The notes under the pieces: model-generated
What the model was told of the DNA's origin: nothing
Database searches by the model: none
What the model saw: only the letters and a program-made list of their open reading frames with translations
Position numbers and translations under genes: made by a program
Assembly (NCBI GenBank): GCA_021650915.1
Contig: CP091279.1
Coordinates: 3,690,001 to 3,722,000, forward strand
Length of the DNA stretch: 32,000 nucleotides
From: Candidatus Brocadia sp.
GTDB taxonomy: Bacteria > Planctomycetota > Brocadiia > Brocadiales > Brocadiaceae
Reading direction: 5' to 3'
Shown here: one piece after another, positions 1,511 to 15,528 of the stretch
How the letters are laid out: every line of letters starts with the position of its first letter
Numbering within the stretch: position 1 is the first letter of the stretch

Positions 1511-1638
1511 TAACCATGTAGCTTTTTGAAAAATCCCAATAAAGGCGATGTTTACCCCGTGTAGGGGCAGGTTTCAAACCTGCCCCTACAAGACAATAGT
1601 ATTTATGGAGAGAATTTTTCAAAAAGCCAGATCGTTAC
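1510..1638. repeat. Family-1 MITE-like hairpin element, short variant
   Basis: Terminal inverted repeats GTAACCATGTAGCTTTTTGAAAAAT (left) and ATTTTTCAAAAAGCCAGATCGTTAC (right). The central palindrome GTAGGGGCAGGTTT-C-AAACCTGCCCCTAC lies at 1561-1589. The ends match those of the copies at 3065, 8901 and 10693. Confidence 0.75.
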
Positions 1639-1658
1639 AAAAACAGAAAGATTTTATC

Positions 1659-2945
1659 ATGACAACAAACCATATCGGCCCTGATGCCATTCTTCAAAAA
1701 AAGCAGGAATATCTGATTCCCTGCGTTTACCATTTTTACAGGAAACCGATGCAGATCGTCAGGGGCAAGATGCAGCACCTTTATGACCATACGGGCAAGC
1801 AGTATCTGGATTTTTATGGCGGGGTGTCGGTAATGAATGCCGGGCACTGCAACCCGGAGGTGGTGGAAAAAATTTGCGAGCAGGTAAGAACGCTTCAGCA
1901 CACCACGGCTATCTATCTCACCCAGCCCATAGTAGACCTCGCAGAGAAACTGGCGCAGATTACCCCCCGGTCACTCAAGCGGTCTTTCTTTTGCGCCAGC
2001 GGGTCTGAGGCCAATGAAGGGGCCGCGCTCCTTGCCCAGTTGTATACCGGCAAGAATAAATTTGTTGCCATCCAGCAGGGACTTCACGGACGCACGAAAC
2101 TTACCATGAATCTCACCGGGCTCCCGATGTGGAGAACCGACCCCAATCCCCTCAGTGATGTTGTCCATATTCCAGGGGCATACTGTTACCGGTGCGCCTA
2201 TGGGCTTACCTATCCCAGATGTGATCTCACCTGTGCATGGAGACTTGAGGACGTGGTGAAGAACGGCGAGTATGCTGCCTTCATTGCCGAGCCAATTCAG
2301 GGAAACGGCGGCATTCTTACACCGCCTCCCGGTTATTTTAAGCTCATCAGGGAAATCCTCGACAGATATCACGTGCTCTTCATAGCGGACGAGGTTCAGA
2401 CGGGATTCGGCAGGACGGGAGAGATGTTTGCAATTGAACATTGGGATGTTCTGCCCGATATCATGACCCTGGCAAAGGCCCTGGCGAATGGCACTCCCAT
2501 TGGCGCCTTTATAACGAATGATACCATAGCATCGTCTTACACGCGTCCTGGCGCTTCCACAACGGGTGGGAATCCCGTGTCAGCCACGGCGGCCCTGGCA
2601 ACCATTGACGTCATTGAAAAACATCAACTGGTGGAAAGGGCACGAACGCTTGGCGCCTATTTTCAGGAAAAACTGCTGGAACTCCAGCAAAGACACACCA
2701 TCATCGGGGAGGTGCGGGGCAAAGGTCTCATGCTGGGTGTTGAACTGGTTAAGGAGGACAAAATTCCTGCTGCCGAAGAAACTGACCACATCCTTGAAAG
2801 GTTAAAAGATTGCGGTATTTTGGCGGGAAAGACCGGCGTATCCCGAAACGTGCTTACGTTTCAACCGCCTCTGGTTATTACCGGCACAGACATAGATCAC
2901 GTGGCAAAGACCCTGGATAGCATACTATATTCAGGATGCTCATAA
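1659..2945 (+). CDS. Class-III (fold type I) PLP-dependent aminotransferase
   Basis: Motifs DFYGGVSVMNAGHCNPEV, SGSEANEGA, FIADEVQTGFGRTGEMFA and TLAKALANG (Schiff-base Lys). I moved the start from 1548 to the ATG at 1659, because 1548-1638 lies inside a repeat element and the family typically begins near MTTNH... Confidence 0.85.
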   Translation: MTTNHIGPDAILQKKQEYLIPCVYHFYRKPMQIVRGKMQHLYDHTGKQYLDFYGGVSVMNAGHCNPEVVEKICEQVRTLQHTTAIYLTQPIVDLAEKLAQITPRSLKRSFFCASGSEANEGAALLAQLYTGKNKFVAIQQGLHGRTKLTMNLTGLPMWRTDPNPLSDVVHIPGAYCYRCAYGLTYPRCDLTCAWRLEDVVKNGEYAAFIAEPIQGNGGILTPPPGYFKLIREILDRYHVLFIADEVQTGFGRTGEMFAIEHWDVLPDIMTLAKALANGTPIGAFITNDTIASSYTRPGASTTGGNPVSATAALATIDVIEKHQLVERARTLGAYFQEKLLELQQRHTIIGEVRGKGLMLGVELVKEDKIPAAEETDHILERLKDCGILAGKTGVSRNVLTFQPPLVITGTDIDHVAKTLDSILYSGCS

Positions 2946-3043
2946 AATGTGAAGTTTAAATTGATAATAAGGTGGCATGGACAAACTCTGTTTGTCCGTG
3001 TTGAACTACTATAAATCACAAATTGTGAGCCTGTGGAGTATAT
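2943..3043 (+). repeat. Module-A repeat (101 bp), copy 1
   Basis: 97 of 101 positions are identical to 9282-9382 in the same orientation. It contains the perfect hairpin GGACAAAC-TCT-GTTTGTCC (2979-2997). It starts on the aminotransferase stop codon. Confidence 0.9.
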
Positions 3044-3064
3044 TCAGTAGAGAAAAATAAATTT

Positions 3065-3210
3065 GGTAACAATTTAGTTTTTTGAAAAAGTAGGGGCGAA
3101 GCATTTGCCTAATTGGGTATGCATGCATTTATGCCGATTGCAGCAAATGCTTCGCCCCTACCCTGGGTGGTAAATATTGCTATTATTGGGGTTTTTTAAA
3201 AAACTAAATT
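3065..3210. repeat. Family-1 MITE-like hairpin element, long variant
   Basis: Outer inverted repeats are AATTTAGTTTTTTGAAAAA (3071-3089) and TTTTTTAAAAAACTAAATT (3192-3210). Inner arms are GTAGGGGCGAAGCATTTGCC (3090-3109) and AGCAAATGCTTCGCCCCTAC (3142-3161), which are complementary at 19 of 20 positions. Confidence 0.85.
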
Positions 3211-3231
3211 ATTTTCTAAATTTGATAAATC

Positions 3232-3452
3232 ATAGCGCAGCACAGCCGCAACCAAATTTCCTTTATGAAAGTGGGGAGATTGCTTCGGAAAAGGCCCTCG
3301 CAATGACAGTGACCATGCACTTTGATGGCACACTGCACGTTGTCATTGCGAGTGAAGCGAAGCAATCTTTCACTCATAAAAAACGGTACCTCCTGAAAGG
3401 GGCTTATGAAAAAACTTACAAAAAAAAGAAGTTTTTATACAGTAATACTATA
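3232..3452 (+). repeat. Composite repeat C (outer element carrying an inner GATTGCTTCGG...CGAAGCAATC hairpin element), copy 1
   Basis: About 93 percent identical by eye to 15957-16177. The inner part has arms GATTGCTTCGG..CTCGCAATGAC and GTCATTGCGAG..CGAAGCAATC. It explains the VIASEAKQS pseudo-peptide at the start of track ORF 3177..4070. Confidence 0.9.
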
Positions 3453-3491
3453 ACCCGTGCACCACGAGAGTATATTTTGAAAATACAAAAT

Positions 3492-4070
3492 ATGAGCGCT
3501 AAAAAAACTGAAGCATTTATTTGCGATACAGAAAACAAAGGATTCCTGATGGAATTCATAGAAAGCAATATTACAAAACGCTTGATTCCCAGGGGACTAA
3601 GCTGGTTTGGCTGCATGGGGGGGTTGTCGCTGGTTGCCTTTATGATCCAGTTGGGTACGGGCATATTTCTCATGTTCTCTTTTATTCCGAGCGCGGCAGA
3701 AGCAGTCTCCAGTATTCAAAGAGTAAGCCATAGCGTCCCCTACGGCTGGCTTATCCACCGCATTCATGCAGTGGGGCCGCACGTGATGATCGGCATGGTA
3801 ATAAGCCACATGCTCCGCATCCTCTTTAAAGGCATTTACCGGCATCCACGGGAATTGCATTGGGTCTCCGGGGCGTGCCTGCTTATCCTGACTTTTATTA
3901 TGTATTATACCGGATATTTGTTATCTGCGGGCAATCACAGCAACCATTCCGTTCTATCAATGACTTCTGTATACGCATTGCACATTGCCGGTATTCCCCT
4001 GACGATGGGATTATTTATGGGTATGCACTTTTTTATGGTGAGGAGGACCGGGATTTACGAGCCTCTGTAA
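3492..4070 (+). CDS. Cytochrome b6-like protein (N-terminal four-helix, di-heme half of cytochrome b)
   Basis: Colinear with cytochrome b6. GCMGG matches the YCLGG site. HRIHAVGPHVMIGMVISHMLR carries the two helix-B His. PRELHWVSG matches PRELTWVTG. VYALHIAGIPLTMGLFMGMHFFMVRRTG carries the two helix-D His. The start is set at ATG 3492, because upstream codons belong to repeat C. Confidence 0.8.
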   Translation: MSAKKTEAFICDTENKGFLMEFIESNITKRLIPRGLSWFGCMGGLSLVAFMIQLGTGIFLMFSFIPSAAEAVSSIQRVSHSVPYGWLIHRIHAVGPHVMIGMVISHMLRILFKGIYRHPRELHWVSGACLLILTFIMYYTGYLLSAGNHSNHSVLSMTSVYALHIAGIPLTMGLFMGMHFFMVRRTGIYEPL

Positions 4071-4092
4071 GAATGGCCGGAAGGATTTTGGG

Positions 4093-4539
4093 ATGAAAGA
4101 CTATACAAAAGGCAAACGCCCTGAGATGCTCGAGCCATTTTTCCCAAACGAGCTTTTGAGACACATCATCATTTCGTGTTTTCTCATTATCCTTGAAATG
4201 GGAGCCATTATGGCATTCCCACTGACATGGAAGATACTCGACAAACCCGGCCACATCCCCTGGTTTCTCTTGCCCATATACCAGTTGCGTACCCTTGTTC
4301 AAAATGAGGCGGTATTCATCTCTGTCCTTGTGCTCTCCGCCCTGCTCTTTGTCTCGTGGCCGTTTTTGGTGCGTGACAGGAACTATCGCAGGTCTTCTTT
4401 CCCCGATGCAGAGGGCAGAAGCAGCAGCTATGCCCGGCATAGCAAAGAACGCCACAATTTGTGGCATCGGCCTCTACTCTTTGCGATCGTTATTACTACG
4501 ATTATTTCCCTGATTACGCTATGTTTTATAAAAACGTAA
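4093..4539 (+). CDS. Cytochrome b C-terminal half / b6f subunit-IV-like protein
   Basis: EPFFPNELLRHI matches the EPAWPNDLLY region. HIPWFLLPIYQLR aligns with LPEWYFFPVFQILR. There are three hydrophobic helices. GGAAGGA lies upstream of the ATG. Confidence 0.7.
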   Translation: MKDYTKGKRPEMLEPFFPNELLRHIIISCFLIILEMGAIMAFPLTWKILDKPGHIPWFLLPIYQLRTLVQNEAVFISVLVLSALLFVSWPFLVRDRNYRRSSFPDAEGRSSSYARHSKERHNLWHRPLLFAIVITTIISLITLCFIKT

Positions 4540-5504
4540 AATTCCTAAAGATATGTATCTCTTTTTTCTCTCTAAGTGCATGCCTGCTCCCCGTGAGCTG
4601 CACCCTTTATCCTGAACTGGTTGAAACAGGGCCCAAATCTCCTCAGTCAGAACGATGCGGGGATTGCCATCAGGATATCTACCGTGAGTGGAAAGACTCG
4701 CCTCACGCCAGCAGTTTTATCAATGCAGCATTCAGGGAAGAGACCAACGAGTATCAGTTTACCTTTTGTATCGGATGCCATGCCCCGGAAACCATCTTTA
4801 CGGACGAAAAGATTAAACCACGGAAGGTAAACGAATCCGAAGGAGTAAACTGCACTAGTTGCCACCTGAATGACTGCAAATTAAGCGGTCCCACTCCGGC
4901 GCACGGGCCGCACCCCATTGCCGGGGAAAACCCCTTTTTTCGATCAAGCGAATTGTGCGGAAAATGTCATGTAGGCACGTATGCGGCATGGAAGGAATCA
5001 GATATGGCAGAGGGAAAGAAGACCTGCCAGGACTGCCACATGCCCGCAATAACCCGCAAACTTATCCAGGACGACCCGTGGCAAAAAATCTATCCGAAAC
5101 GAGAAGGAAAGCAGCACCTGTTCTCATCCCTGGCCTTTTTTCAGGATAACGAGAATCCATTACCATTGTCGTTTATCCACGTGACCCGTTCGGCAGGCAA
5201 GGTTGAAGGGATTTTGGAACTGGAAAACGCCGGCATTCCTCACAGCGTGCCCACCGGAGATTACGGATACCGCGAGGTCGTTGTTGCGGTGGCACTCCTG
5301 GATAATGCGGGCCGGGTTATCGAATCGAAGAGAGAAAGCCTGTTTGTTGAATTAAAAACCGCCTTGCCGTACAAGGGGAAGAAAAGCATCCCCTTTTGCT
5401 TTGCCGGAGGTGAGAACGTCTCTATGATTAAGGCCACTGTGGTCCGAACCTCCTTTCAAAAAGACAAGGACTTTTTACTTGCTGAAACGACGTATCCACT
5501 GTAA
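4521..5504 (+). CDS. Pentaheme c-type cytochrome, probable lipoprotein
   Basis: Five CXXCH motifs: CGDCH, CIGCH, CTSCH, CGKCH, CQDCH. The signal peptide ends in the lipobox LSAC. The start is taken at ATG 4521 (MFYKNVKFLK...), which overlaps the upstream gene by 19 nt. Confidence 0.8.
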   Translation: MFYKNVKFLKICISFFSLSACLLPVSCTLYPELVETGPKSPQSERCGDCHQDIYREWKDSPHASSFINAAFREETNEYQFTFCIGCHAPETIFTDEKIKPRKVNESEGVNCTSCHLNDCKLSGPTPAHGPHPIAGENPFFRSSELCGKCHVGTYAAWKESDMAEGKKTCQDCHMPAITRKLIQDDPWQKIYPKREGKQHLFSSLAFFQDNENPLPLSFIHVTRSAGKVEGILELENAGIPHSVPTGDYGYREVVVAVALLDNAGRVIESKRESLFVELKTALPYKGKKSIPFCFAGGENVSMIKATVVRTSFQKDKDFLLAETTYPL

Positions 5505-5509
5505 TCCTT

Positions 5510-6772
5510 ATGTTTGCCGAAGTAAAAAGATTAAATAAAGGAACAGCCATCAGGCTTGCAATTGCCGCGGGAATTGCTATGGGAATGGTTGTTGTGGTAC
5601 TGCTCATTACCATAACAAGACCGAATACCGCTTCATTCTGTGCGAAATGCCACAACGACGTCACCTTCAATAATGCCTGCAAAAAACCATTATCAAAGGA
5701 TATTGCCTGTATCGAGTGTCATACCCATAAAAATGAGGGTGTAGCGCATCTGGCCGTTGAAATAAAGGATGAGCATTGCACTGCGGAGTCATGCCACCCC
5801 CTGAGCAAATTATCTGCGCAGGCAGTGAAGTACAAAAAGAGCATCCTCTTTCAGCATAAGACGCACCTGGCCAAATTGCCCGGCAATCTTACATTGAAAT
5901 GCACCTCGTGTCACGCCCATATCAGCAATGAGAAACATTTTGAAACGGACACAAAAACATGCGATACCTGTCATTTTATTAACACCACGAGGCCGCTGTA
6001 TGCACAGAATAAGAAACCCATCTCCGATTGCGCCCTGTGCCACGGTCGTATCGAAAAGACGAAGGACATCTACGGAAAGACCTTTCGGCACGAGGCGTAC
6101 GAAAAGAACGAAAAAACAGATTGCTCTGACTGCCATTTTAACATCATTCAGGGCGATGGAAGGGTAGACGAAAGGAACTGCTATCAGTGTCATGCTGAGA
6201 TCTCTGATTATTCCAAAAGGGTGCCGGATGTGCATGCCATTCATATTGTAAAACACAAGGTTGCCTGTACGTCATGTCATGATGCCCTTACCCATGGTTG
6301 GGTTACGCCAGGCAACCCCGCCCATGGGAATGATTCCGCCCAGCAGCCTGGTGCAGCAGCGCAAAAAGTACAGGAATTGATTATGATGGGAATGGGTGGC
6401 ACTGGCATCAGAGGCGAGCCGGATCCCATGTACCTTGCAACGCTAAATTGTTCCGCATGCCATAAGGACAAAGAACGGTTTGCTCATATTGAACCCAAGG
6501 TATGCAATAACTGCCACGAGAAGGGCTTTGATAAAATATTGACAGAACAGATGCGTTTCGTAACATCCCGGCTGCGATTGCTACGGAGCTTACTGACACA
6601 GGCCAAAAGATGCAACAGCGATGCCGCAAGCCAGGCCATCCATGAGGCAGAAGTGAATTATCATCTCATCAGGGAAGACGGCAGTAGTGGCGCTCATAAT
6701 ATCAAATATATCAAATATCTGCTGGATTATAGCATTACCAATTTAAGACAAATCCTAGAGCAAAAAACATGA
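5510..6772 (+). CDS. Membrane-anchored multiheme c-type cytochrome (10 CXXCH plus 1 CX4CH), NapC/NrfH-like N-terminus
   Basis: An N-terminal TM helix (IAAGIAMGMVVVVLLITI) is followed directly by CAKCH. Further motifs: CIECH, CTAESCH, CTSCH, CDTCH, CALCH, CSDCH, CYQCH, CTSCH, CSACH, CNNCH. Confidence 0.85.
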   Translation: MFAEVKRLNKGTAIRLAIAAGIAMGMVVVVLLITITRPNTASFCAKCHNDVTFNNACKKPLSKDIACIECHTHKNEGVAHLAVEIKDEHCTAESCHPLSKLSAQAVKYKKSILFQHKTHLAKLPGNLTLKCTSCHAHISNEKHFETDTKTCDTCHFINTTRPLYAQNKKPISDCALCHGRIEKTKDIYGKTFRHEAYEKNEKTDCSDCHFNIIQGDGRVDERNCYQCHAEISDYSKRVPDVHAIHIVKHKVACTSCHDALTHGWVTPGNPAHGNDSAQQPGAAAQKVQELIMMGMGGTGIRGEPDPMYLATLNCSACHKDKERFAHIEPKVCNNCHEKGFDKILTEQMRFVTSRLRLLRSLLTQAKRCNSDAASQAIHEAEVNYHLIREDGSSGAHNIKYIKYLLDYSITNLRQILEQKT

Positions 6773-7539
6773 TCACATATTTTTTACGTTTGATAGTGTG
6801 TTTGGGTATTGTTGTCTTGCCGCGGGTAGCCTGGGGAAACGATCGCCACCCCGCGAAGCCGGACAATCTCTCGTTTCCTGATGGCTCATGCACTGACAGG
6901 TGTCACGTGAATTACCTGACATATTATTCCCTGTACGAGGGTGAGATATTCAGGCATAAGAGTCACTCACTCAGTCAGGGATTGGAATGTAATCGATGTC
7001 ATAATAACGATGCCGCTCACACGAAGACCCACGGGGGGTTGCTTATACAAAAGAAAGACTGCTGGGCTTGTCACCACAAAAGAGGGTATGAAACAACCAC
7101 CGGTTCTTTCTCAAAGAATCAGGAATTATCCTTTTATCACGGAGATTGTATCAGGTGTCATACCCAAGTAAAAGATTACCTAAAGGGAGAAATCCAGGGC
7201 ATGGGAATAAAAATACCCGATTGGATGTCCGCTGCAGTTTCCTGTGCCGATTGCCACAAGCTGGAATCCGACGGACTTTCGTTTAAAGCCGTGCGCAATC
7301 ATTGCATCGCATGCCATAACAGCGATTATGGACTGTTGCATGATGCATGGAGGGAGACACTCGATAGACAGATCAAACAATTCTGCGAAAACGGCGCCGG
7401 GACACAAGGCGCACGGGATATCCTGAGGCTGGTGCAATCCTATGGCATGCATAATTTCCGGCTATCGCAATTTCTTTTAAAATCAATCGGCAACGCCAGC
7501 GAGGGGGAGCATACGAGGAATGCCCTTTTCAAGCCATGA
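6769..7539 (+). CDS. Secreted multiheme c-type cytochrome (5 CXXCH plus 1 CX3CH)
   Basis: Signal peptide ...LPRVAWG. Motifs: CTDRCH, CNRCH, CWACH, CIRCH, CADCH, CIACH. The start overlaps the upstream stop as ATGA. The C-terminal GMHNFRLSQFLL echoes GAHNIKYIKYLL of the preceding cytochrome. Confidence 0.85.
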   Translation: MITYFLRLIVCLGIVVLPRVAWGNDRHPAKPDNLSFPDGSCTDRCHVNYLTYYSLYEGEIFRHKSHSLSQGLECNRCHNNDAAHTKTHGGLLIQKKDCWACHHKRGYETTTGSFSKNQELSFYHGDCIRCHTQVKDYLKGEIQGMGIKIPDWMSAAVSCADCHKLESDGLSFKAVRNHCIACHNSDYGLLHDAWRETLDRQIKQFCENGAGTQGARDILRLVQSYGMHNFRLSQFLLKSIGNASEGEHTRNALFKP

Positions 7540-8237
7540 TTGAAGAATACGTCCATTTTTATTCCGGCAATCTGAAACTGGAAGGAATTTTGACCTACGA
7601 TGAAGATGCACAGGCATCCCCCGCAATCCTGATATGCGCACCACACCCCAATCTGGGCGGTGACATGGACAACAATATCACTGCCAGCATCGCCCGGATA
7701 GCCGGAGACAGGGGATTTGCATCCCTTCGGTTTAACTATCGGGGTGTGGGAAAGAGTGAATTGCACACAGCAGATATAGCCCAAAGATTCCACTACTGGG
7801 ATCAATCCCTGAATGGCGGCGACTGCGACTACACGGATGCCGTCGCGGACACCCACGCAGCGCTTGCATTGCTCATTTCACAGCCTGGTATAACACAAGA
7901 TATTTTTATTGCGGGATATTCATTTGGCGCGTTTGCCGGAATGAGGGTGGTTGCGGAGAGTAAAAAGGCAAAGGCATTTGCCGGTATATCAATTCCCTTT
8001 GGCCGATACCCGCTGGATTTTTTTCATACCTGCACAATAAACAAATTATGCATCTATAGCGAGAACGATTTCTCGACGGACGCAGAAGACACCCTGAAGG
8101 GTTTTGAAGGCCTGTCTCCGCCAAAGACCCTGGAACTCATTGAACATAGCGACCATTTCTACCGGGGGCAGGAAGATTTCATTTCAAAAAAGGTTTGCAT
8201 CTTTTTTGCAGATCAGATGAAAGATCATGTGCGGTAG
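7536..8237 (+). CDS. Alpha/beta-fold hydrolase (COG2945-like)
   Basis: Motifs ILICAPHPNLGGDMDNN and RFNYRGVGKSE, plus the nucleophile elbow GYSFG. The start overlaps the cytochrome stop as ATGA. Confidence 0.75.
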   Translation: MIEEYVHFYSGNLKLEGILTYDEDAQASPAILICAPHPNLGGDMDNNITASIARIAGDRGFASLRFNYRGVGKSELHTADIAQRFHYWDQSLNGGDCDYTDAVADTHAALALLISQPGITQDIFIAGYSFGAFAGMRVVAESKKAKAFAGISIPFGRYPLDFFHTCTINKLCIYSENDFSTDAEDTLKGFEGLSPPKTLELIEHSDHFYRGQEDFISKKVCIFFADQMKDHVR

Positions 8238-8257
8238 TAGAGGCACGAGAATATTCA

Positions 8258-8869
8258 TCATCCGGCATCAGGTCGCTCTGTGCATGGTTTATCGCCAGGT
8301 CCCGGCAGCGGTGCTTTTGCTCCACCCTTCGTTTCACCATCGATAAGCGCTTCTATGCTGGGATAGGCATAGATCGTCGGTGCATTATGTATCATCAGGC
8401 CGCCGGTATCTGCGGAAGGGCCATAGGTGCTGTAAATTTCCCGTCCCAACATGCGCAACATCACGGTTAACTGCCCACGATGATGCGCTGAATGTGCGAT
8501 TCTTCTGGTCATGATCCAGGCCCTTGACCGCTTCGTGTCAAAGAATACCGATACCTTTTCCCACCATGCCTTATCTGTCTTCTGTAATGCGGTAAGTCGT
8601 TTCCCGGAATCCTCCGCATAACGTTTTATAAACTCCAAACGGGTTTCCTCTTTTGGTAAAGGCGGGGCGCCAACATCGATCTCCAGCATATTGCGAAACC
8701 AGAGATTTTCACTCACACACTGATGCACCATATGCTCCAGGGCATTTCTTCCACGCCTGTCGTGCAGGCGGGGACGCACACGCATATCTTCATCCTTAAA
8801 CATACTCCAAACGCCCAGCGTCTTCACCCGCTCGGTTTCATAGGTATCGACGAGAAATTGATATTCCAT
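8258..8869 (-). CDS. DinB-superfamily (DinB_2-like) metal-binding protein
   Basis: C-terminal AHSAHHRGQLTVMLRMLG and an upstream LEHMVHQCVSE His-rich helix pattern. The start is set at MEYQF (complement of 8867-8869), because 8901-8965 lies inside a family-1 repeat. Confidence 0.65.
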   Translation of the reverse strand: MEYQFLVDTYETERVKTLGVWSMFKDEDMRVRPRLHDRRGRNALEHMVHQCVSENLWFRNMLEIDVGAPPLPKEETRLEFIKRYAEDSGKRLTALQKTDKAWWEKVSVFFDTKRSRAWIMTRRIAHSAHHRGQLTVMLRMLGREIYSTYGPSADTGGLMIHNAPTIYAYPSIEALIDGETKGGAKAPLPGPGDKPCTERPDAG

Positions 8870-8900
8870 AGAAGCATCCTTTTCAAGAAAGTAAATATAA

Positions 8901-9052
8901 GGTAACCATTTGGTTTTTTGAAAAGGTAGGGGCGAAGCATTTGCCTGCTTGTGGTGTGAATACATTTATGCCAATTTATGGCAAATGCTTCGCCCCTACA
9001 CCGTGCGGAAACATCGTTATTATTGCCATTTTTCAAAAAACTAAAGTGTTAC
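8901..9052. repeat. Family-1 MITE-like hairpin element, long variant
   Basis: Outer ends are GGTAACCATTTGGTTTTTTGAAAAG and TTTTTCAAAAAACTAAAGTGTTAC. The inner arms are perfect 20-nt complements: GTAGGGGCGAAGCATTTGCC (8926-8945) and GGCAAATGCTTCGCCCCTAC (8980-8999). Confidence 0.9.
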
Positions 9053-9055
9053 AAA

Positions 9056-9262
9056 TCTTTTTTTTGCAAGTTTTTTCGTAACCCTATCTATCCCTTATCA
9101 GAAGGCGCCGTTTATTGATAAGAGAAGGATTGCTTCGCTGTCGCTCGCAATGACAACGTACCGCATGTCATCAAAGACATAGCCAGTGTCATTGCGAGGG
9201 TCTTGTCCGAAGCAATCTCCCGCTTTCACAAGGGGGAAGTGGTTGCGGCTGTGCCGCGCTAT
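9056..9262 (-). repeat. Composite repeat C, inverted copy (outer-right end truncated against the family-1 element)
   Basis: The reverse complement reads CATAGCGCGGCACAGCCGCAACC...GAAAGCGGGAGATTGCTTCGG...GTCATTGCGAGCGACAGCGAAGCAATC..., colinear with 3232-3452. It explains track ORF 9098..9427. Confidence 0.85.
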
Positions 9263-11044: not shown

Positions 11045-11820
11045 GTCTGAAAGGACATTCCTGCCGGTAGGAACTGAAACATATGCGACGCGTGCTGGTA
11101 GTACGCGCCGTGTCTGAAAGGACATTCCTGCCGGTAGGAACTGAAACTATTTTCTTTTCCATTTCCGTCTCCTCCGCTTAGTCTGAAAGGACATTCCTGC
11201 CGGTAGGAACTGAAACTTACTTCGCGTGGAAGATTTCCAGGATGCGGGTCTGAAAGGACATTCCTGCCGGTAGGAACTGAAACAAGGCGTGCTCCCACGC
11301 GACGGCGGCACTGGGTCTGAAAGGACATTCCTGCCGGTAGGAACTGAAACTTATTTTGGTCTTGCGCCGCAACACAAGTATGTCTGAAAGGACATTCCTG
11401 CCGGTAGGAACTGAAACCCAGATTTGCGCCGATGTCGCCTACCATTGCTGTCTGAAAGGACATTCCTGCCGGTAGGAACTGAAACATTGATACTGGGAGG
11501 CTCGAAACCAGCCTTTTAGTCTGAAAGGACATTCCTGCCGGTAGGAACTGAAACCTTTTTCATGATCTGAGCGTCGTGGGCCCTTGTCTGAAAGGACATT
11601 CCTGCCGGTAGGAACTGAAACAGTTCTCATCTTTCTCCTCCTTCCCGCCTTCGTCTGAAAGGACATTCCTGCCGGTAGGAACTGAAACTAGCCGAGCCGG
11701 CCTTCTTCTGCTGCCTTGTCTGAAAGGACATTCCTGCCGGTAGGAACTGAAACAGACGTAAAAAAAACCTCAGCCTTCTCGACGAGTCTGAAAGGACATT
11801 CCTGCCGGTAGGAACTGAAA
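11045..11820 (+). CRISPR. CRISPR array, 12 identical 36-nt repeats and 11 spacers (29-33 nt)
   Basis: The repeat GTCTGAAAGGACATTCCTGCCGGTAGGAACTGAAAC starts at 11045, 11112, 11181, 11248, 11315, 11382, 11450, 11519, 11586, 11653, 11718 and 11785. All copies are identical when read by hand, and all spacers are unique. The plus orientation is inferred from the 3' end ACTGAAAC, which resembles the ATTGAAA(C/G) tag, and from the small hairpin TTCCT-GCCGGT-AGGAA just 5' of it. Confidence 0.95.
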
Positions 11821-12125
11821 CCGTAAGGAGAGGAGAAGGACGAGGGACGAAAGACGAGAGAGGAGAGAGGAGGGGACATTTCGGGCGGGCGGGAAAATCC
11901 CGAAGGGATGATATGATTATAGGAAAAAATGCACCACGATATTCATCCCCGCAGGAGTGAAATATCGGTAAAAGAACGATACCATGCCACCTTGTTTATC
12001 ATTATCAGTTTCAATATTTACCGATCGTGAACCCTTTTGCGTGTAACGTGCAGGATTCTGTGTTAAGATAGTAAGATATGAGATAAATTCTGGAAGGTTC
12101 GTTTACCCGTTGGCAAGCCAAAAAC

Positions 12126-13250
12126 ATGCAAAACAGGACATTCCATATCTTCCTATTTCTGTGCATTGCGGCCATTGGTGGTTACGCAACCATTGCGCAG
12201 GTGCTGCTGATCCGTGAATTCCTGAACGTCTTTATGGCAACGCACTCTGTCTGGGTATCGTATTTGGCGCATGGTTTCTGGGTATTGCCGCAGGCGCCGT
12301 TACGGGCGCAAAGATTGAGCGGACGTTTCACCGCGCCTTCACTGTTTTTACCGTCACGTTGTTCGTTCTCTGCTTTCTGCAGCCCGTGCAAATCTTTTTT
12401 ATACGCGGGGTGCGGGGTGTTTTGCGTGTTGGGACTGGTGAGTATCTTTCCCTGATACCCCTGCTCCTTACCGCGTTTGGAGTAATCGTCCCATTTAGTT
12501 TTATCATCGGTTTTATCTTCCCGTTTTCGTCAAAGGCGGTGAGAATCGCCTCCACTGACCACGATGGCGACGGCCATGCCCCTGCTTCAGAGCGGAAATT
12601 GCAGAATTCGGATTCCTTATCCAATCCGCAATGCTCAATCCGAAATCAAAAATCAGAGATCCAAGATGGAGATACCCGTGATGCCGCGGTGGATATCGGA
12701 GCGGTTTACGTCGTTGAATCCATAGGAAGTCTTGTCGGGGGGCTGGTATTCTCATTTTTCATGGCATCGAGATTCCACCCGTTTACAATCATGACGCTTT
12801 TGAATGCAGGGATGTTTGCCCTTTTGACCGCTCTCCTGCTCCTGCTGGATCACCATGCTGATGATCTTTGAAGGGGTTATTGGATGCTATGCCCTTGTTC
12901 TGCCGTTTTTAATTCATATATTGTCTTCTTATTCCTTCGCGGCAGAAACCGGCTTAACCTGTTTGATTGGTATCGCAGGGATATTGACGGGCGTAGAGTT
13001 TCCCCTGGTCAATAAGATACTCACGGAACATCATCAGGATATTGCGATATCTGCCGGGGCTACAAACAGCGCCGATCACATCGGCGCCTTTCTGGGAGCA
13101 ATATTGACCGGGGTAATCTGTATCCCGCTTTTTGGCATCTCCGGCACGCGCCTGATCCTGGCGGCGCTCAATATAGCGAGTCTCATCCTAATCGCCTTTT
13201 CCATCGTATATCCTGGCCGTAGCAAAGCCGCAACCAATTCTCCGTTGTGA
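12126..13250 (+). pseudogene. Polytopic membrane protein resembling the N-terminal membrane domain of fused spermidine-synthase-like proteins; reading frame broken twice
   Basis: Three overlapping track ORFs (12126..12455, 12359..12871, 12855..13250) sit in frames 0, 2 and 0. The sense continues across 12231-12235 only with a -1 shift (LLIREFLNVF / YGNALCLGIVFGAWFLGIAAGA). It returns to frame 0 somewhere in 12828-12871. Motifs IGAVYVVESIGSLVGG and NSADHIGAFLGAILTG resemble the Y-x-x-(N/D)-x-x-G-A TM pattern of that family. No catalytic domain follows. Confidence 0.45.
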
Positions 13251-13496: not shown

Positions 13497-14243
13497 TTAA
13501 TCCTTGGAGCGTATAAATAAGTCGTGGAGTTTCTGGCATATCTCCTTGACGACGGTGTTGTTGCAGAGAGAGAGAGCCCACGGAATTTCTTCTCCTTCAA
13601 AGGGTTCCGTGAATCCCGGCATTGCCTCGTCGGCAAAACAATGTACTTTGTTATGCCGTATTGACAAGGTTTGGATACGCTCTTCCCTGCTGGGGAGCAT
13701 TTCTACAGGGATGATGCCGTTCCACTCCTTTGAAAAACCTTCAACGATAAAAAGCCTGCCGCGCTTATCAAACAATTGGTACCACACGTGAGCAAAGGAG
13801 ATCGACTCATCTTTGTTTATCACCCAACCCCATACAATATCCCCGTCGATATTTAATTCGGATAGTTCGGAAAAGAACAGGAATACAGAGTCTTCGCAAT
13901 CGCCCTTTTTCCTTTGCCTCGTTTCTGTGGGTGTCTGCCAGTAATCTGTCTTTGGCGGTTCAGACCGGTAGTCAATATCAAAGGCTATTTTTTTATATGC
14001 CTCGTAAATGTGCTCGCCGTCATGGAAGGTCTCAGTACACCATTTTTTATACTTTGGGTTATCAGGAATACCGGCTCCGGGAGGAGCGGAAGGTATGAGA
14101 GGCGTTATTGACAAACTGTCCTCACATGGCTTGTAGCCCTTTCCCGTAAGAAACAGGTCGGCATACGAAACATCAGCAAATACCGCGGAACAATACAGAG
14201 TTGATAAACCAAGATAAATTATGGCTGCAAAGAAGTATCTCAT
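13497..14243 (-). CDS. Secreted transglutaminase-like cysteine peptidase family protein
   Basis: Signal peptide MRYFFAAIIYLGLSTLYCSAVFA. KGDCEDSVFLFFSEL matches the G-D-C-E-D nucleophile motif of periplasmic transglutaminase-like cysteine proteinases. A downstream FAHVWYQL (His) and an Asp follow. Confidence 0.5.
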   Translation of the reverse strand: MRYFFAAIIYLGLSTLYCSAVFADVSYADLFLTGKGYKPCEDSLSITPLIPSAPPGAGIPDNPKYKKWCTETFHDGEHIYEAYKKIAFDIDYRSEPPKTDYWQTPTETRQRKKGDCEDSVFLFFSELSELNIDGDIVWGWVINKDESISFAHVWYQLFDKRGRLFIVEGFSKEWNGIIPVEMLPSREERIQTLSIRHNKVHCFADEAMPGFTEPFEGEEIPWALSLCNNTVVKEICQKLHDLFIRSKD

Positions 14244-14511: not shown

Positions 14512-15528
14512 TTACAGCGCCTTCAGGAATTCAACCAGGTCCTGCATCTCCTGCTGAGTCAAATGCGATGTCCTTCCATGCATGTCCTTCTCATTCACCG
14601 TGTTGTTGATCGTGTCTATCAACGTCCGGGCTCCCCCGTCATGGAAATACGTGCCCGATGCATAAATATCCCTCAACGTCGGCGTATCAAACTCCTTCAC
14701 CAGGTCCAGCCCGATGATCGGCGTGTCACTCTCCTCGCCATAGGGATCTTCCCCTGCCTCTAATGCCTTCAGGTTAAAGACCTTTCCCGGCGTTGAACGG
14801 AAACCCTTTACCCCAACACGGCCCGTCCCCACGTCATGGGTCTGCGCATCGCTAAAAAGCGCCTTCGGATCACTTGCATCACCCGGATGGCACTCCACAC
14901 ATCCCACATTCGGATCGTTGAATATCTTCTCGCCCCTCTTCTGCGCATCCGTCAGCGAACCATCCGGATTCCTGAACGGACTTCCCGTGAATTCCAGCGC
15001 ACGGATGTAGCAGATCAACGCCTCCAACCTCAATGGCGAAAAGTTCTCACTCCTGAACACAAACCCAGGGTCTCTTCCGCACACCCTGTCCAGCGAACTC
15101 GTTGCTCCCACGATCTCATCCGGATGTCCCGTGAATCCCTCATGACGGAACGGCGGCAAATACCTTCCCCCACGGATGTACTTCGTGTTCTTCCAGCTTC
15201 CCCATCCCTCATCACCAAGGTCCCAGATCAATCCCGTCGTCTGGCCCCTCTCGTAATGACAGCTCGCGCATGCATACTCACCCTGAAGACCCCAGGATGC
15301 ATCGTTAAACTGGAACTGCCCGTACCGCACCAGCTCGCTCTTGTACGGTGAGTGCTTTACCCGGTAATGCACCTCCGGCACCGTAAGCGGTTCTGCCCGC
15401 GGAAGCGGCTCCCACTCCGGCCCCGTCTGGATCGTCGCCACTACCTGCGGCGTACCGGCCATCAACTGGCCAGTTCCGATAAGTCCTAGCGCTACAACTA
15501 AGCCTGCTTTTAGTTTCCTTGTAAACAT
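14512..15528 (-). CDS. Di-heme cytochrome c peroxidase / MauG family protein
   Basis: A signal peptide, then two CXXCH motifs (CASCH, CVECH). FDTPTLRDIYASGTYFHDGGARTL matches the conserved P-x-L-R-N / Y-F-H-D-G region of bacterial CCPs. Confidence 0.7.
   Translation of the reverse strand: MFTRKLKAGLVVALGLIGTGQLMAGTPQVVATIQTGPEWEPLPRAEPLTVPEVHYRVKHSPYKSELVRYGQFQFNDASWGLQGEYACASCHYERGQTTGLIWDLGDEGWGSWKNTKYIRGGRYLPPFRHEGFTGHPDEIVGATSSLDRVCGRDPGFVFRSENFSPLRLEALICYIRALEFTGSPFRNPDGSLTDAQKRGEKIFNDPNVGCVECHPGDASDPKALFSDAQTHDVGTGRVGVKGFRSTPGKVFNLKALEAGEDPYGEESDTPIIGLDLVKEFDTPTLRDIYASGTYFHDGGARTLIDTINNTVNEKDMHGRTSHLTQQEMQDLVEFLKAL

Follow-up and report, generated by a model that had tools for sequence, protein, structure and literature searches.

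Can a cytochrome b core persist in a lineage once its Rieske partner has gone, and what would such a core be used for? The question is raised by a stretch of 32,000 nucleotides (nt) of DNA from Candidatus Brocadia sp. (GCA_021650915.1, contig CP091279.1, positions 3,690,001 to 3,722,000; hereafter, the window). At 3492-8237 it carries six tightly packed plus-strand genes for a cytochrome b6, a homologue of b6f subunit IV (SUIV), three multiheme c-type cytochromes that we call c5, c11 and c6 after their numbers of hemes, and an alpha/beta hydrolase. To our knowledge, all characterised cytochrome bc1 and b6f complexes rely on a Rieske protein for the bifurcated, Q-cycle oxidation of quinol. With modest confidence, we interpret the product of the Brocadia locus as a Rieske-independent menaquinone:multiheme-cytochrome-c oxidoreductase whose ancestor was a planctomycetal Rieske/b6/SUIV/multiheme complex of the Ext/Cbc6 kind. 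The original prediction, made from the letters of the window and its open reading frames (ORFs), had described a non-canonical, Rieske-independent quinol:multiheme module. This description is upheld by the contrast in Rieske linkage between the Brocadiales and their outgroups, by the joint loss of the PEWY motif and the cd-loop motif, and by the conserved gene order. The locus is a genuine departure from canonical bc complexes, and the finding is real and conserved.

In a motif scan, no ORF in the window carries the Rieske signature CxH…CxxH, and searches of the window with a hidden Markov model (HMM) and with tblastn were equally empty, in line with what the original prediction had stated. 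A scan with the b6 alignment, limited to one genome per species, gave 80 loci, around which Rieske genes were sought within about ±8 kb. None of the 48 Brocadiales loci has a Rieske ORF in that range. As a control, a CxHLGC…CPCH Rieske ORF lies directly upstream of b6 in all 27 outgroup loci with upstream sequence; these belong to Phycisphaerae, Planctomycetaceae and Dehalococcoidia, with b6 identities of 31-43%. A pseudogenised Rieske gene was not found by tblastn or HMM in the 547-bp gap upstream of b6 in the window. All Brocadiales b6 proteins form one clade in a neighbour-joining tree, sister to the Rieske-linked clade. Given that none of the 48 Brocadiales loci has a linked Rieske gene and the sister clade has one, we infer that the gene was lost once, in the ancestor of the order.

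The loss of the Rieske gene coincides with the loss of the PEWY glutamate and with degeneration or deletion of the cd loop. Structures of bc1 and b6f place the cd helices and PEWY at the lining of the quinol-oxidising (Qo) pocket and of the Rieske docking surface. The original prediction had proposed a split cytochrome b, and its b6 half is identified by PF00033 (80.9 bits against a cut-off of 27.2, E = 1.4e-22) as well as by matches to solved b6 structures at 1e-30. The four axial histidines (H92, H106, H164 and H179) are invariant in the b6 alignment, which spans 47-82% identity; helices B and D bear two each, and the spacing on helix D is 14 residues, as in b6. The residues C41, G43 and G44 of the CxGG motif associated with heme ci (cn) are also invariant, and from this motif the b6/SUIV core is predicted to contain, probably, a covalent heme ci. 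The C-D loop is a different matter, as query residues 147-152 align to chain residues 141-175 of the solved structures and about 28-29 residues are deleted in the window protein. The cd-loop motif LPW(G/D/T)Q, which in b6 lines the Qo site and docks the Rieske protein, is absent. The loop is wholly deleted in the b6 of Brocadiaceae, the window included, and its motif is degenerate in Scalindua and Hypogeohydataceae; the corresponding LPW(T/S)Q…YWGA is intact in Rieske-linked b6.

The window SUIV, the second half of the split cytochrome b, has no Pfam or NCBIfam match. However, when a family profile of 25 homologues was used, the top 4 matches were all b6f subunit IV (E = 0.0015), with an alignment that spans the EPxxPN(D/E) motif and the (PE)W(Y/F) region, and orthologues in Scalindua and Hypogeohydataceae (loci L010 and L012) carry PF00032. 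The family profile and these orthologues speak for the assignment. The N-terminus MKDYTKGK is invariant in the 25 homologues, which places the start of the gene at 4093. An AlphaFold2 (AF2) model has low confidence (pLDDT 61); its helices 18-41, 57-68, 72-99 and 127-146 fit a layout of three transmembrane helices plus an ef helix, and a Foldseek comparison of the model with solved structures gave no meaningful match. The window protein has EPFFPNE, and its Qo motif is IPWF in place of PEWY. PEWY is retained in 16 of 16 scorable Rieske-linked SUIVs versus 0 of 35 scored Rieske-less Brocadiales loci, where IPWF, PPWY/F, PLWF, ISWF and similar motifs are found.

Downstream of this core, c5, c11 and c6 contain 20 canonical CxxCH motifs (5, 10 and 5, respectively), and two non-canonical motifs, CxxxxCH in c11 (C90-H96) and CxxxCH in c6 (C41-H46), bring the total to 22. 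Because both odd motifs are kept in orthologues, the count of 22 hemes, which is also that of the original prediction, is reasonable. The five motifs of c5 are invariant across 37 homologues, and its N-terminus has lipobox-like LSAC and VSC sites; we predict that it is a lipoprotein. Its AF2 model (pLDDT 84) combines an N-terminal five-heme domain with a C-terminal Ig-like beta-sandwich, and the best solved match over the whole length is 5ze8, the c552 of Thermochromatium tepidum (E = 4.5e-13, TM score 0.58). The best NCBIfam match is ExtKL. T. tepidum c552 and Geobacter ExtKL have been grouped as the pentaheme cytochrome (PHC) family (PMC11976967), and c5 belongs to this family. We also considered whether c5 is the orthologue of EX330_07910, the electrode-induced pentaheme cytochrome of Shaw et al., and rejected this, as that gene, which maps to BROSI_A3043, is in a different locus, flanked by genes for a sigma factor and an M6 protease.

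All 11 motifs of c11 are invariant in 23 orthologues (36-74% identity). The protein starts with a transmembrane helix (about residues 13-35), and its first CxxCH (CAKCH) follows within about 8 residues. NapC, NirT, NrfH and CymA have the same N-terminal arrangement; they contain 4-5 hemes, in contrast to the 11 of c11, which moreover is encoded together with a cytochrome b. The original prediction had seen in this N-terminus the head of a NapC/NrfH quinol dehydrogenase. The helix and CAKCH stand, but the NapC/NirT family PF03264 does not match the window protein at E <= 0.01. It matches 11 of the 23 orthologues (best 9.5e-8), so a quinol-dehydrogenase head is plausible and half supported; several c5 homologues are matched by PF03264 as well. 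The third cytochrome, c6, has a Sec signal (…AWG|N), and its motif pattern, including CxxxCH, is the same in orthologues, although the versions in Scalindua and Hypogeohydataceae have 11+1 motifs. Four genomes encode c11 and c6 as one fused ORF of 660-713 amino acids (aa) with 17 motifs (15 CxxCH, one CxxxCH and one CxxxxCH), from which the c6 signal peptide has been dropped. These four fusions argue that c11 and c6 work as a unit and face the same side of the membrane.

The gene calls and junctions are based on the ORF list of the window and its translations (Table 1), which reproduce the six packed genes of the original prediction together with their overlaps and gap. A 22-nt gap separates b6 from SUIV, c5 overlaps SUIV by 19 nt, c11 follows c5 after a 5-nt gap, and ATGA overlaps couple c11 to c6 and c6 to the hydrolase.

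Table 1. Coordinates of the operon, of its upstream neighbour and of the c11-c6 fusions (window positions, except for the fusions, which are in positions of their own loci)
Feature	Coordinates	Strand	Length	Basis
Cytochrome b6	3492..4070	+	192 aa	PF00033, solved b6 structures
Subunit-IV homologue (SUIV)	4093..4539	+	148 aa	Family profile, PF00032 in orthologues
c5, pentaheme c-type cytochrome, lipoprotein-type signal	4521..5504	+	327 aa	5 CxxCH, AF2 model
c11, membrane-anchored 11-heme cytochrome c	5510..6772	+	420 aa	Motifs, Pfam C7/c3 matches
c6, 6-heme cytochrome c	6769..7539	+	256 aa	5 CxxCH + 1 CxxxCH, Sec signal
Cytoplasmic alpha/beta hydrolase	7536..8237	+	233 aa	Weak Pfam Hydrolase_4 and Abhydrolase matches, GYSFG nucleophile elbow
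Class-III aminotransferase	1548..2945	+		PF00202 at 2e-100
c11-c6 fusion, L021	4852-6831
c11-c6 fusion, L024	10179-12191
c11-c6 fusion, L027	7365-9503
c11-c6 fusion, L028	10036-12048

The host is an anammox planctomycete, Candidatus Brocadia of the fulgida type. B. fulgida contig LAQJ01000132.1 (assembly GCA_000987375.1) carries a gene identical to the window c11 as well as this b6, and sequence clusters of the proteins include Candidatus Brocadia fulgida (KKO20066.1) and the Candidatus Brocadia sp. locus tags L3J18_16370/16375, but no EX330 tags. The six-gene order is kept across three families. About 35 of the 48 Brocadiales loci have the synteny aminotransferase-b6-SUIV-c5-c11-c6-hydrolase, and Scalindua, Loosdrechtia, Hypogeohydataceae and most loci of Brocadia and Jettenia have this order preceded by a U32 peptidase gene. 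Orthologues of the hydrolase occupy the same position in Brocadiaceae, Scalindua and Hypogeohydataceae.

Brocadiaceae have two extra types of paralogous cluster. One consists of b6-SUIV-c11-c6, the other of b6, a short SUIV, an 8-heme protein (621 aa), c11 and c6. Given that the trio recurs in both types, b6, c11 and c6 appear to travel together. The second type adjoins formate-dehydrogenase-like and NuoEF-like genes in B. sinica, where the b6 cluster (L009 92-6930, contig BAFN01000001) is divergent from genes for an 895-aa formate-dehydrogenase-like molybdopterin protein and NuoE/NuoF-like proteins. These neighbours may hint at the electron donor of the B. sinica paralogue.

Other loci depart from the common order. 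In Kuenenia, the subfamily-M b6 (L025 7968-8567 in Ca. Kuenenia hertensis, and also L036, L039 and L030) has the heme ligands and CxGG, and a gene for a PMT-like glycosyltransferase is inserted between the aminotransferase and b6. Four Scalindua loci (L046, L048, L057 and L091) lack c11, and in these c5 is followed by a c6-like protein with 6 to 9 hemes. In L046 and L048 the loss of c11 is accompanied by a shortened cd loop in b6 (197 aa). The c11-less loci of Scalindua may represent a second, independent reduction of the module.

With the Rieske protein and the Qo wall lost and the sites on the negative side intact, the Brocadia module is most economically modelled as one that is independent of a Rieske protein and does not bifurcate. 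We suspect that b6 and SUIV form a membrane core with hemes bL and bH and probably a covalent heme ci. On the positive side, c11 (with one transmembrane anchor and a NapC-like first heme near the membrane), the putative lipoprotein c5 and c6 would make up a wire of ~22 hemes. The bifurcating Q cycle would have been abandoned. Quinone chemistry would take place at the retained quinone-reducing (Qi)/ci site, and possibly at the c11 head too, while the b hemes would take electrons across the membrane and heme bL would swap electrons directly with the nearest c-heme. Menaquinol would in this way reduce the c-hemes, which could export electrons to low-potential accessory acceptors as Geobacter Cbc and Ext complexes do. 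The direction from quinol to c-heme is more likely than the reverse, based on the kinship with Ext/Cbc, the predicted lipoprotein nature of c5, the location of one paralogue next to formate-dehydrogenase-like genes, and the patchy, accessory distribution of the module.

Several observations weigh against this interpretation, and there are three alternatives to it. In the first, another part of the genome would supply the Rieske protein, as an orphan or in common with the anammox Rieske/cytochrome b (R/b) complexes R/b-1 to R/b-3, and the complex would operate a modified Q cycle in which the multihemes act as the high-potential chain. The Rieske HMM (built on the 27 outgroup ORFs) and tblastn found no Rieske gene in the window and 840 kb of Brocadiales loci, the rest of the genome not having been searched, and a third Rieske protein of B. 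fulgida (KKO21266.1), encoded on a separate contig, has been proposed to perhaps serve this cytochrome b (PMC5600118). Scalindua and Hypogeohydataceae b6 keep a cd loop of full length. Loss of the PEWY glutamate is not decisive when taken alone, because Qo motifs with proline at position 2 (PPWY, PPWF and APWY) exist in functional Rieske-containing complexes (PMC4122944). The argument rests on the combination of three changes, which affect the Rieske gene, the glutamate of PEWY and the motif in the cd loop. A Rieske gene that is always adjacent in the sister clade is absent beside b6 in 48 of 48 Brocadiales loci, the glutamate and LPWxQ are lost too, and in Brocadiaceae the cd loop that forms the docking surface is deleted. 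In addition, Kuenenia and B. electricigens have three annotated Rieske genes each, all assigned to R/b operons of their own (PMC12954380). Taken together, a borrowed Rieske protein seems to us very unlikely.

Other observations question whether the parts of the module belong together. That b6/SUIV and the multihemes assemble into one complex is something we infer from sequence, and the SUIV model is of low confidence. In Kuenenia, the aminotransferase and an intact b6 are followed by RND efflux genes, and SUIV and the multihemes are not beside them. Conversely, at the orthologous B. sinica-type locus c5, c6 and the hydrolase remain while b6, SUIV and c11 are missing, and in B. electricigens, where c11 and c5 adjoin the aminotransferase, no locus tag is available for b6 or SUIV. 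In such a scenario, c11 with c5 would be the true quinol dehydrogenase, of the NapC/CymA type (consistent with the PF03264 matches of c11 orthologues and several c5 homologues), and b6/SUIV a dispensable accessory or decaying relic. We find this quite doubtful, given that heme ligands and CxGG which stay invariant over such a range of b6 identity argue against decay, that b6 has been duplicated jointly with c11 and c6 in two cluster types, and that the gene junctions are tight or overlapping. The B. electricigens orthologues of c11 and c5, EX330_00380 and EX330_00385, are weakly expressed and did not differ significantly between electrode and nitrite (log2 fold changes of -0.57 and +0.32; Shaw et al.), a further point against our main interpretation.

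The module may instead run in reverse, as an energy-conserving cytochrome c:menaquinone reductase in which low-potential electrons of the positive side, for example from hydrazine oxidation, would pass through the c-hemes to bL, bH and ci and then to menaquinone at the negative side, generating a membrane potential. A decayed positive-side quinol site next to invariant bH ligands and CxGG would suit such a reaction, as would the presence of the cluster in all sampled Brocadiales families. The c-hemes are of c3, c7 and PHC types, and the title of Chen et al. 2019, as cited in PMC11976967, describes the solved PHC member as low-potential. Furthermore, Shaw et al. still describe as unknown the oxidoreductase through which hydrazine-derived electrons reach the quinone pool. 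However, the expression of EX330_00380 and EX330_00385 in B. electricigens is low (baseMean 44-61, compared with 360-1100 for the R/b-3 genes; Shaw et al.), and a core catabolic role is hard to square with a Kuenenia b6 that has no adjacent multihemes and a B. sinica locus without b6 and c11. The lipoprotein signal of c5 and its kinship with ExtKL also suggest the periplasm rather than the anammoxosome. Overall, we regard the reverse direction as unlikely. The more specific proposal that this is the missing energy-conserving link of anammox metabolism, a one-way electrogenic b6 complex that, after the loss of Rieske and Qo, carries electrons from hydrazine to menaquinone, is in our view improbable.

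How does the module compare with systems described before? Short CxGG cytochromes b of B. fulgida, Jettenia, Scalindua, Kuenenia and B. sinica were grouped by Dibrova et al. (2017) as a planctomycetal "subfamily M", separate from the Rieske-linked subfamilies G and D; they also pointed out adjacent SUIV genes in B. fulgida and Jettenia (PMC5600118). The window b6 belongs to subfamily M, given that B. fulgida contig LAQJ01000132 carries it and that Brocadiales b6 proteins are a single clade; the gene family is the same and the organism in effect so too. Shaw et al. listed EX330_00380 as a "membrane-anchored undeca-heme" and EX330_00385 as a CymA-like "tetraheme" cytochrome, and placed both in a model of extracellular electron transfer. 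Their table has the same synteny, with proB, DinB, hydrolase, …, c-type cytochromes, aminotransferase and U32 peptidase. Thus, the cytochrome b family had already been catalogued, and the multihemes had a place in a speculative electron-transfer model. Absent from PMC5600118 are the multiheme partners, the conserved order of the six genes, the disappearance of PEWY and of the cd loop, and the dating of the Rieske loss to the Brocadiales ancestor.

The closest homologous system is ExtKLMNOPQS/Cbc6 of Geobacter sulfurreducens, as the best NCBIfam match is ExtP for b6 and ExtKL for c5, although neither reaches its equivalog cut-off (132.4 vs 290 for ExtP; 45.3 vs 250 for ExtKL). The two have in common a cytochrome b, a small membrane protein (ExtQ), a five-heme PHC, and 10- to 12-heme and lipoprotein cytochromes. 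Ext/Cbc6 differs in having the Rieske protein ExtO, the porin ExtI and the rhodanese ExtH (PMC5877670), none of which is found in the Brocadia cluster. The original prediction had pointed to Rieske-less analogues in metal-reducing deltaproteobacteria. This does not hold for Ext/Cbc6, the nearest by sequence; it holds for Geobacter Cbc5 (CbcEDCBA/CbcBA), the only one of them described as Rieske-less, in which a b-type cytochrome, a membrane protein and multihemes make up a menaquinol:ferricytochrome c oxidoreductase for extracellular acceptors (PMC11434368). Cbc5 works in the way that we propose for the Brocadia module, but this is an analogy of function only; gene order and heme counts differ.

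The nearest relatives of b6 (31-43% identity) are encoded in superclusters of Phycisphaerae and Planctomycetaceae (L062-L087), which share with the Brocadia locus SUIV, a five-heme ORF and an 11-heme ORF like c11 (23-26%). Unlike Brocadia, they retain the upstream Rieske gene, PEWY and the LPWxQ cd loop and have ORFs of 13, 10, 11 and 13 hemes. These superclusters are the likely ancestors of the anammox module. In eight of them (L065, L066, L070, L073, L076, L078, L080 and L085), the order is 13-heme–Rieske–b6–SUIV–5-heme–10-heme–11-heme–13-heme–10-heme at about 4.5-16.6 kb of each locus, and more than 60 heme-c motifs surround a canonical Rieske/b6 core of the PEWY type.

Within anammox bacteria, three Rieske/b complexes are known, and all carry Rieske and NAD(P)-oxidoreductase subunits (PMC12954380). 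R/b-2 and R/b-3 (kustd1480-85 and kuste4569-74) resemble the window operon in a four-helix b6-like protein, a SUIV-like protein and a multiheme cytochrome c in the place of cytochrome f; they differ in their Rieske proteins (+303 and +335 mV), their NAD(P) oxidoreductase subunits and a five-helix SUIV, and R/b-3 has an HAO-like octaheme protein (PMC12954380). The window operon stands apart from the Rieske/cytochrome b complexes (bc1, b6f and R/b-1 to R/b-3) in that no Rieske subunit is encoded at the locus. A Pfam and NCBIfam scan of the six proteins found no match to molybdopterin, NrfD or iron-sulfur families, and alternative complex III, Qrc and NrfD-type complexes were set aside on this basis.

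Besides the hydrolase, the genes that flank the redox proteins in the window are assigned by Pfam to an aminotransferase and DinB. The aminotransferase gene is the upstream neighbour of b6 in most of the 48 Brocadiales loci, only 0-52 nt away in Scalindua and Hypogeohydataceae, and it occupies the slot that the Rieske gene holds in the outgroups. We rejected the possibility that it is HemL, which acts in heme synthesis, as the protein is a generic class III enzyme below every equivalog cut-off. It may be part of the module. Further upstream, related loci (L010-L013) share a block of genes for a 3beta-HSD/epimerase-like protein, SCP2, an MMPL transporter, a U32 peptidase of ~670 aa and the aminotransferase. 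The counterpart region in the window is at 14-442 and 476-1510, and here an inserted gene for a metallophosphoesterase (476-1510) separates the U32 and aminotransferase genes. The pair of U32 and SCP2 genes is reminiscent of UbiU/V/T, the proteins of O2-independent quinone hydroxylation.

The 547-bp gap upstream of b6 contains a palindrome with 36-nt arms and a perfect 12-nt inverted repeat, CTCGCAATGACA / TGTCATTGCGAG (3090-3161 and 3297-3352), which looks like a small repeat element. An in-frame extension of the b6 ORF from a TTG at 3177 would cross these repeats and is probably non-coding. A scan of 2800-9100 for promoters and terminators gave counts that were not above those of shuffled sequence, and an Rfam scan of the window returned zero matches. 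No plus-strand ORF of the window outside the operon has heme-c motifs, and one minus-strand ORF has two: the 338-aa ORF at 14512-15528 (-), with two CxxCH and weak matches to di-heme cytochrome c peroxidase/MauG and cytochrome c. In a CRISPR-like array at 11045-11821, a 36-nt repeat, GTCTGAAAGGACATTCCTGCCGGTAGGAACTGAAAC, occurs 12 times, separated by spacers of about 31-33 nt, and the minus-strand "ORFs" across the array are repeat artefacts. No cas genes were identified near the array, and the adjoining ORFs at 12359-13250 and 13497-14243 have no Pfam match.

From the perspective of metabolic evolution, a b6/SUIV core has persisted through the whole anammox order without a linked Rieske gene. 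This amounts to a natural experiment on the capabilities of such a core when it has no Rieske protein. With this operon, the respiratory complexes known from anammox bacteria gain a fourth bc-type module, which is a candidate in two questions of anammox metabolism, the transfer of electrons between multihemes and menaquinone, and respiration with metals or electrodes. If the reverse direction were true, the module would conserve energy.

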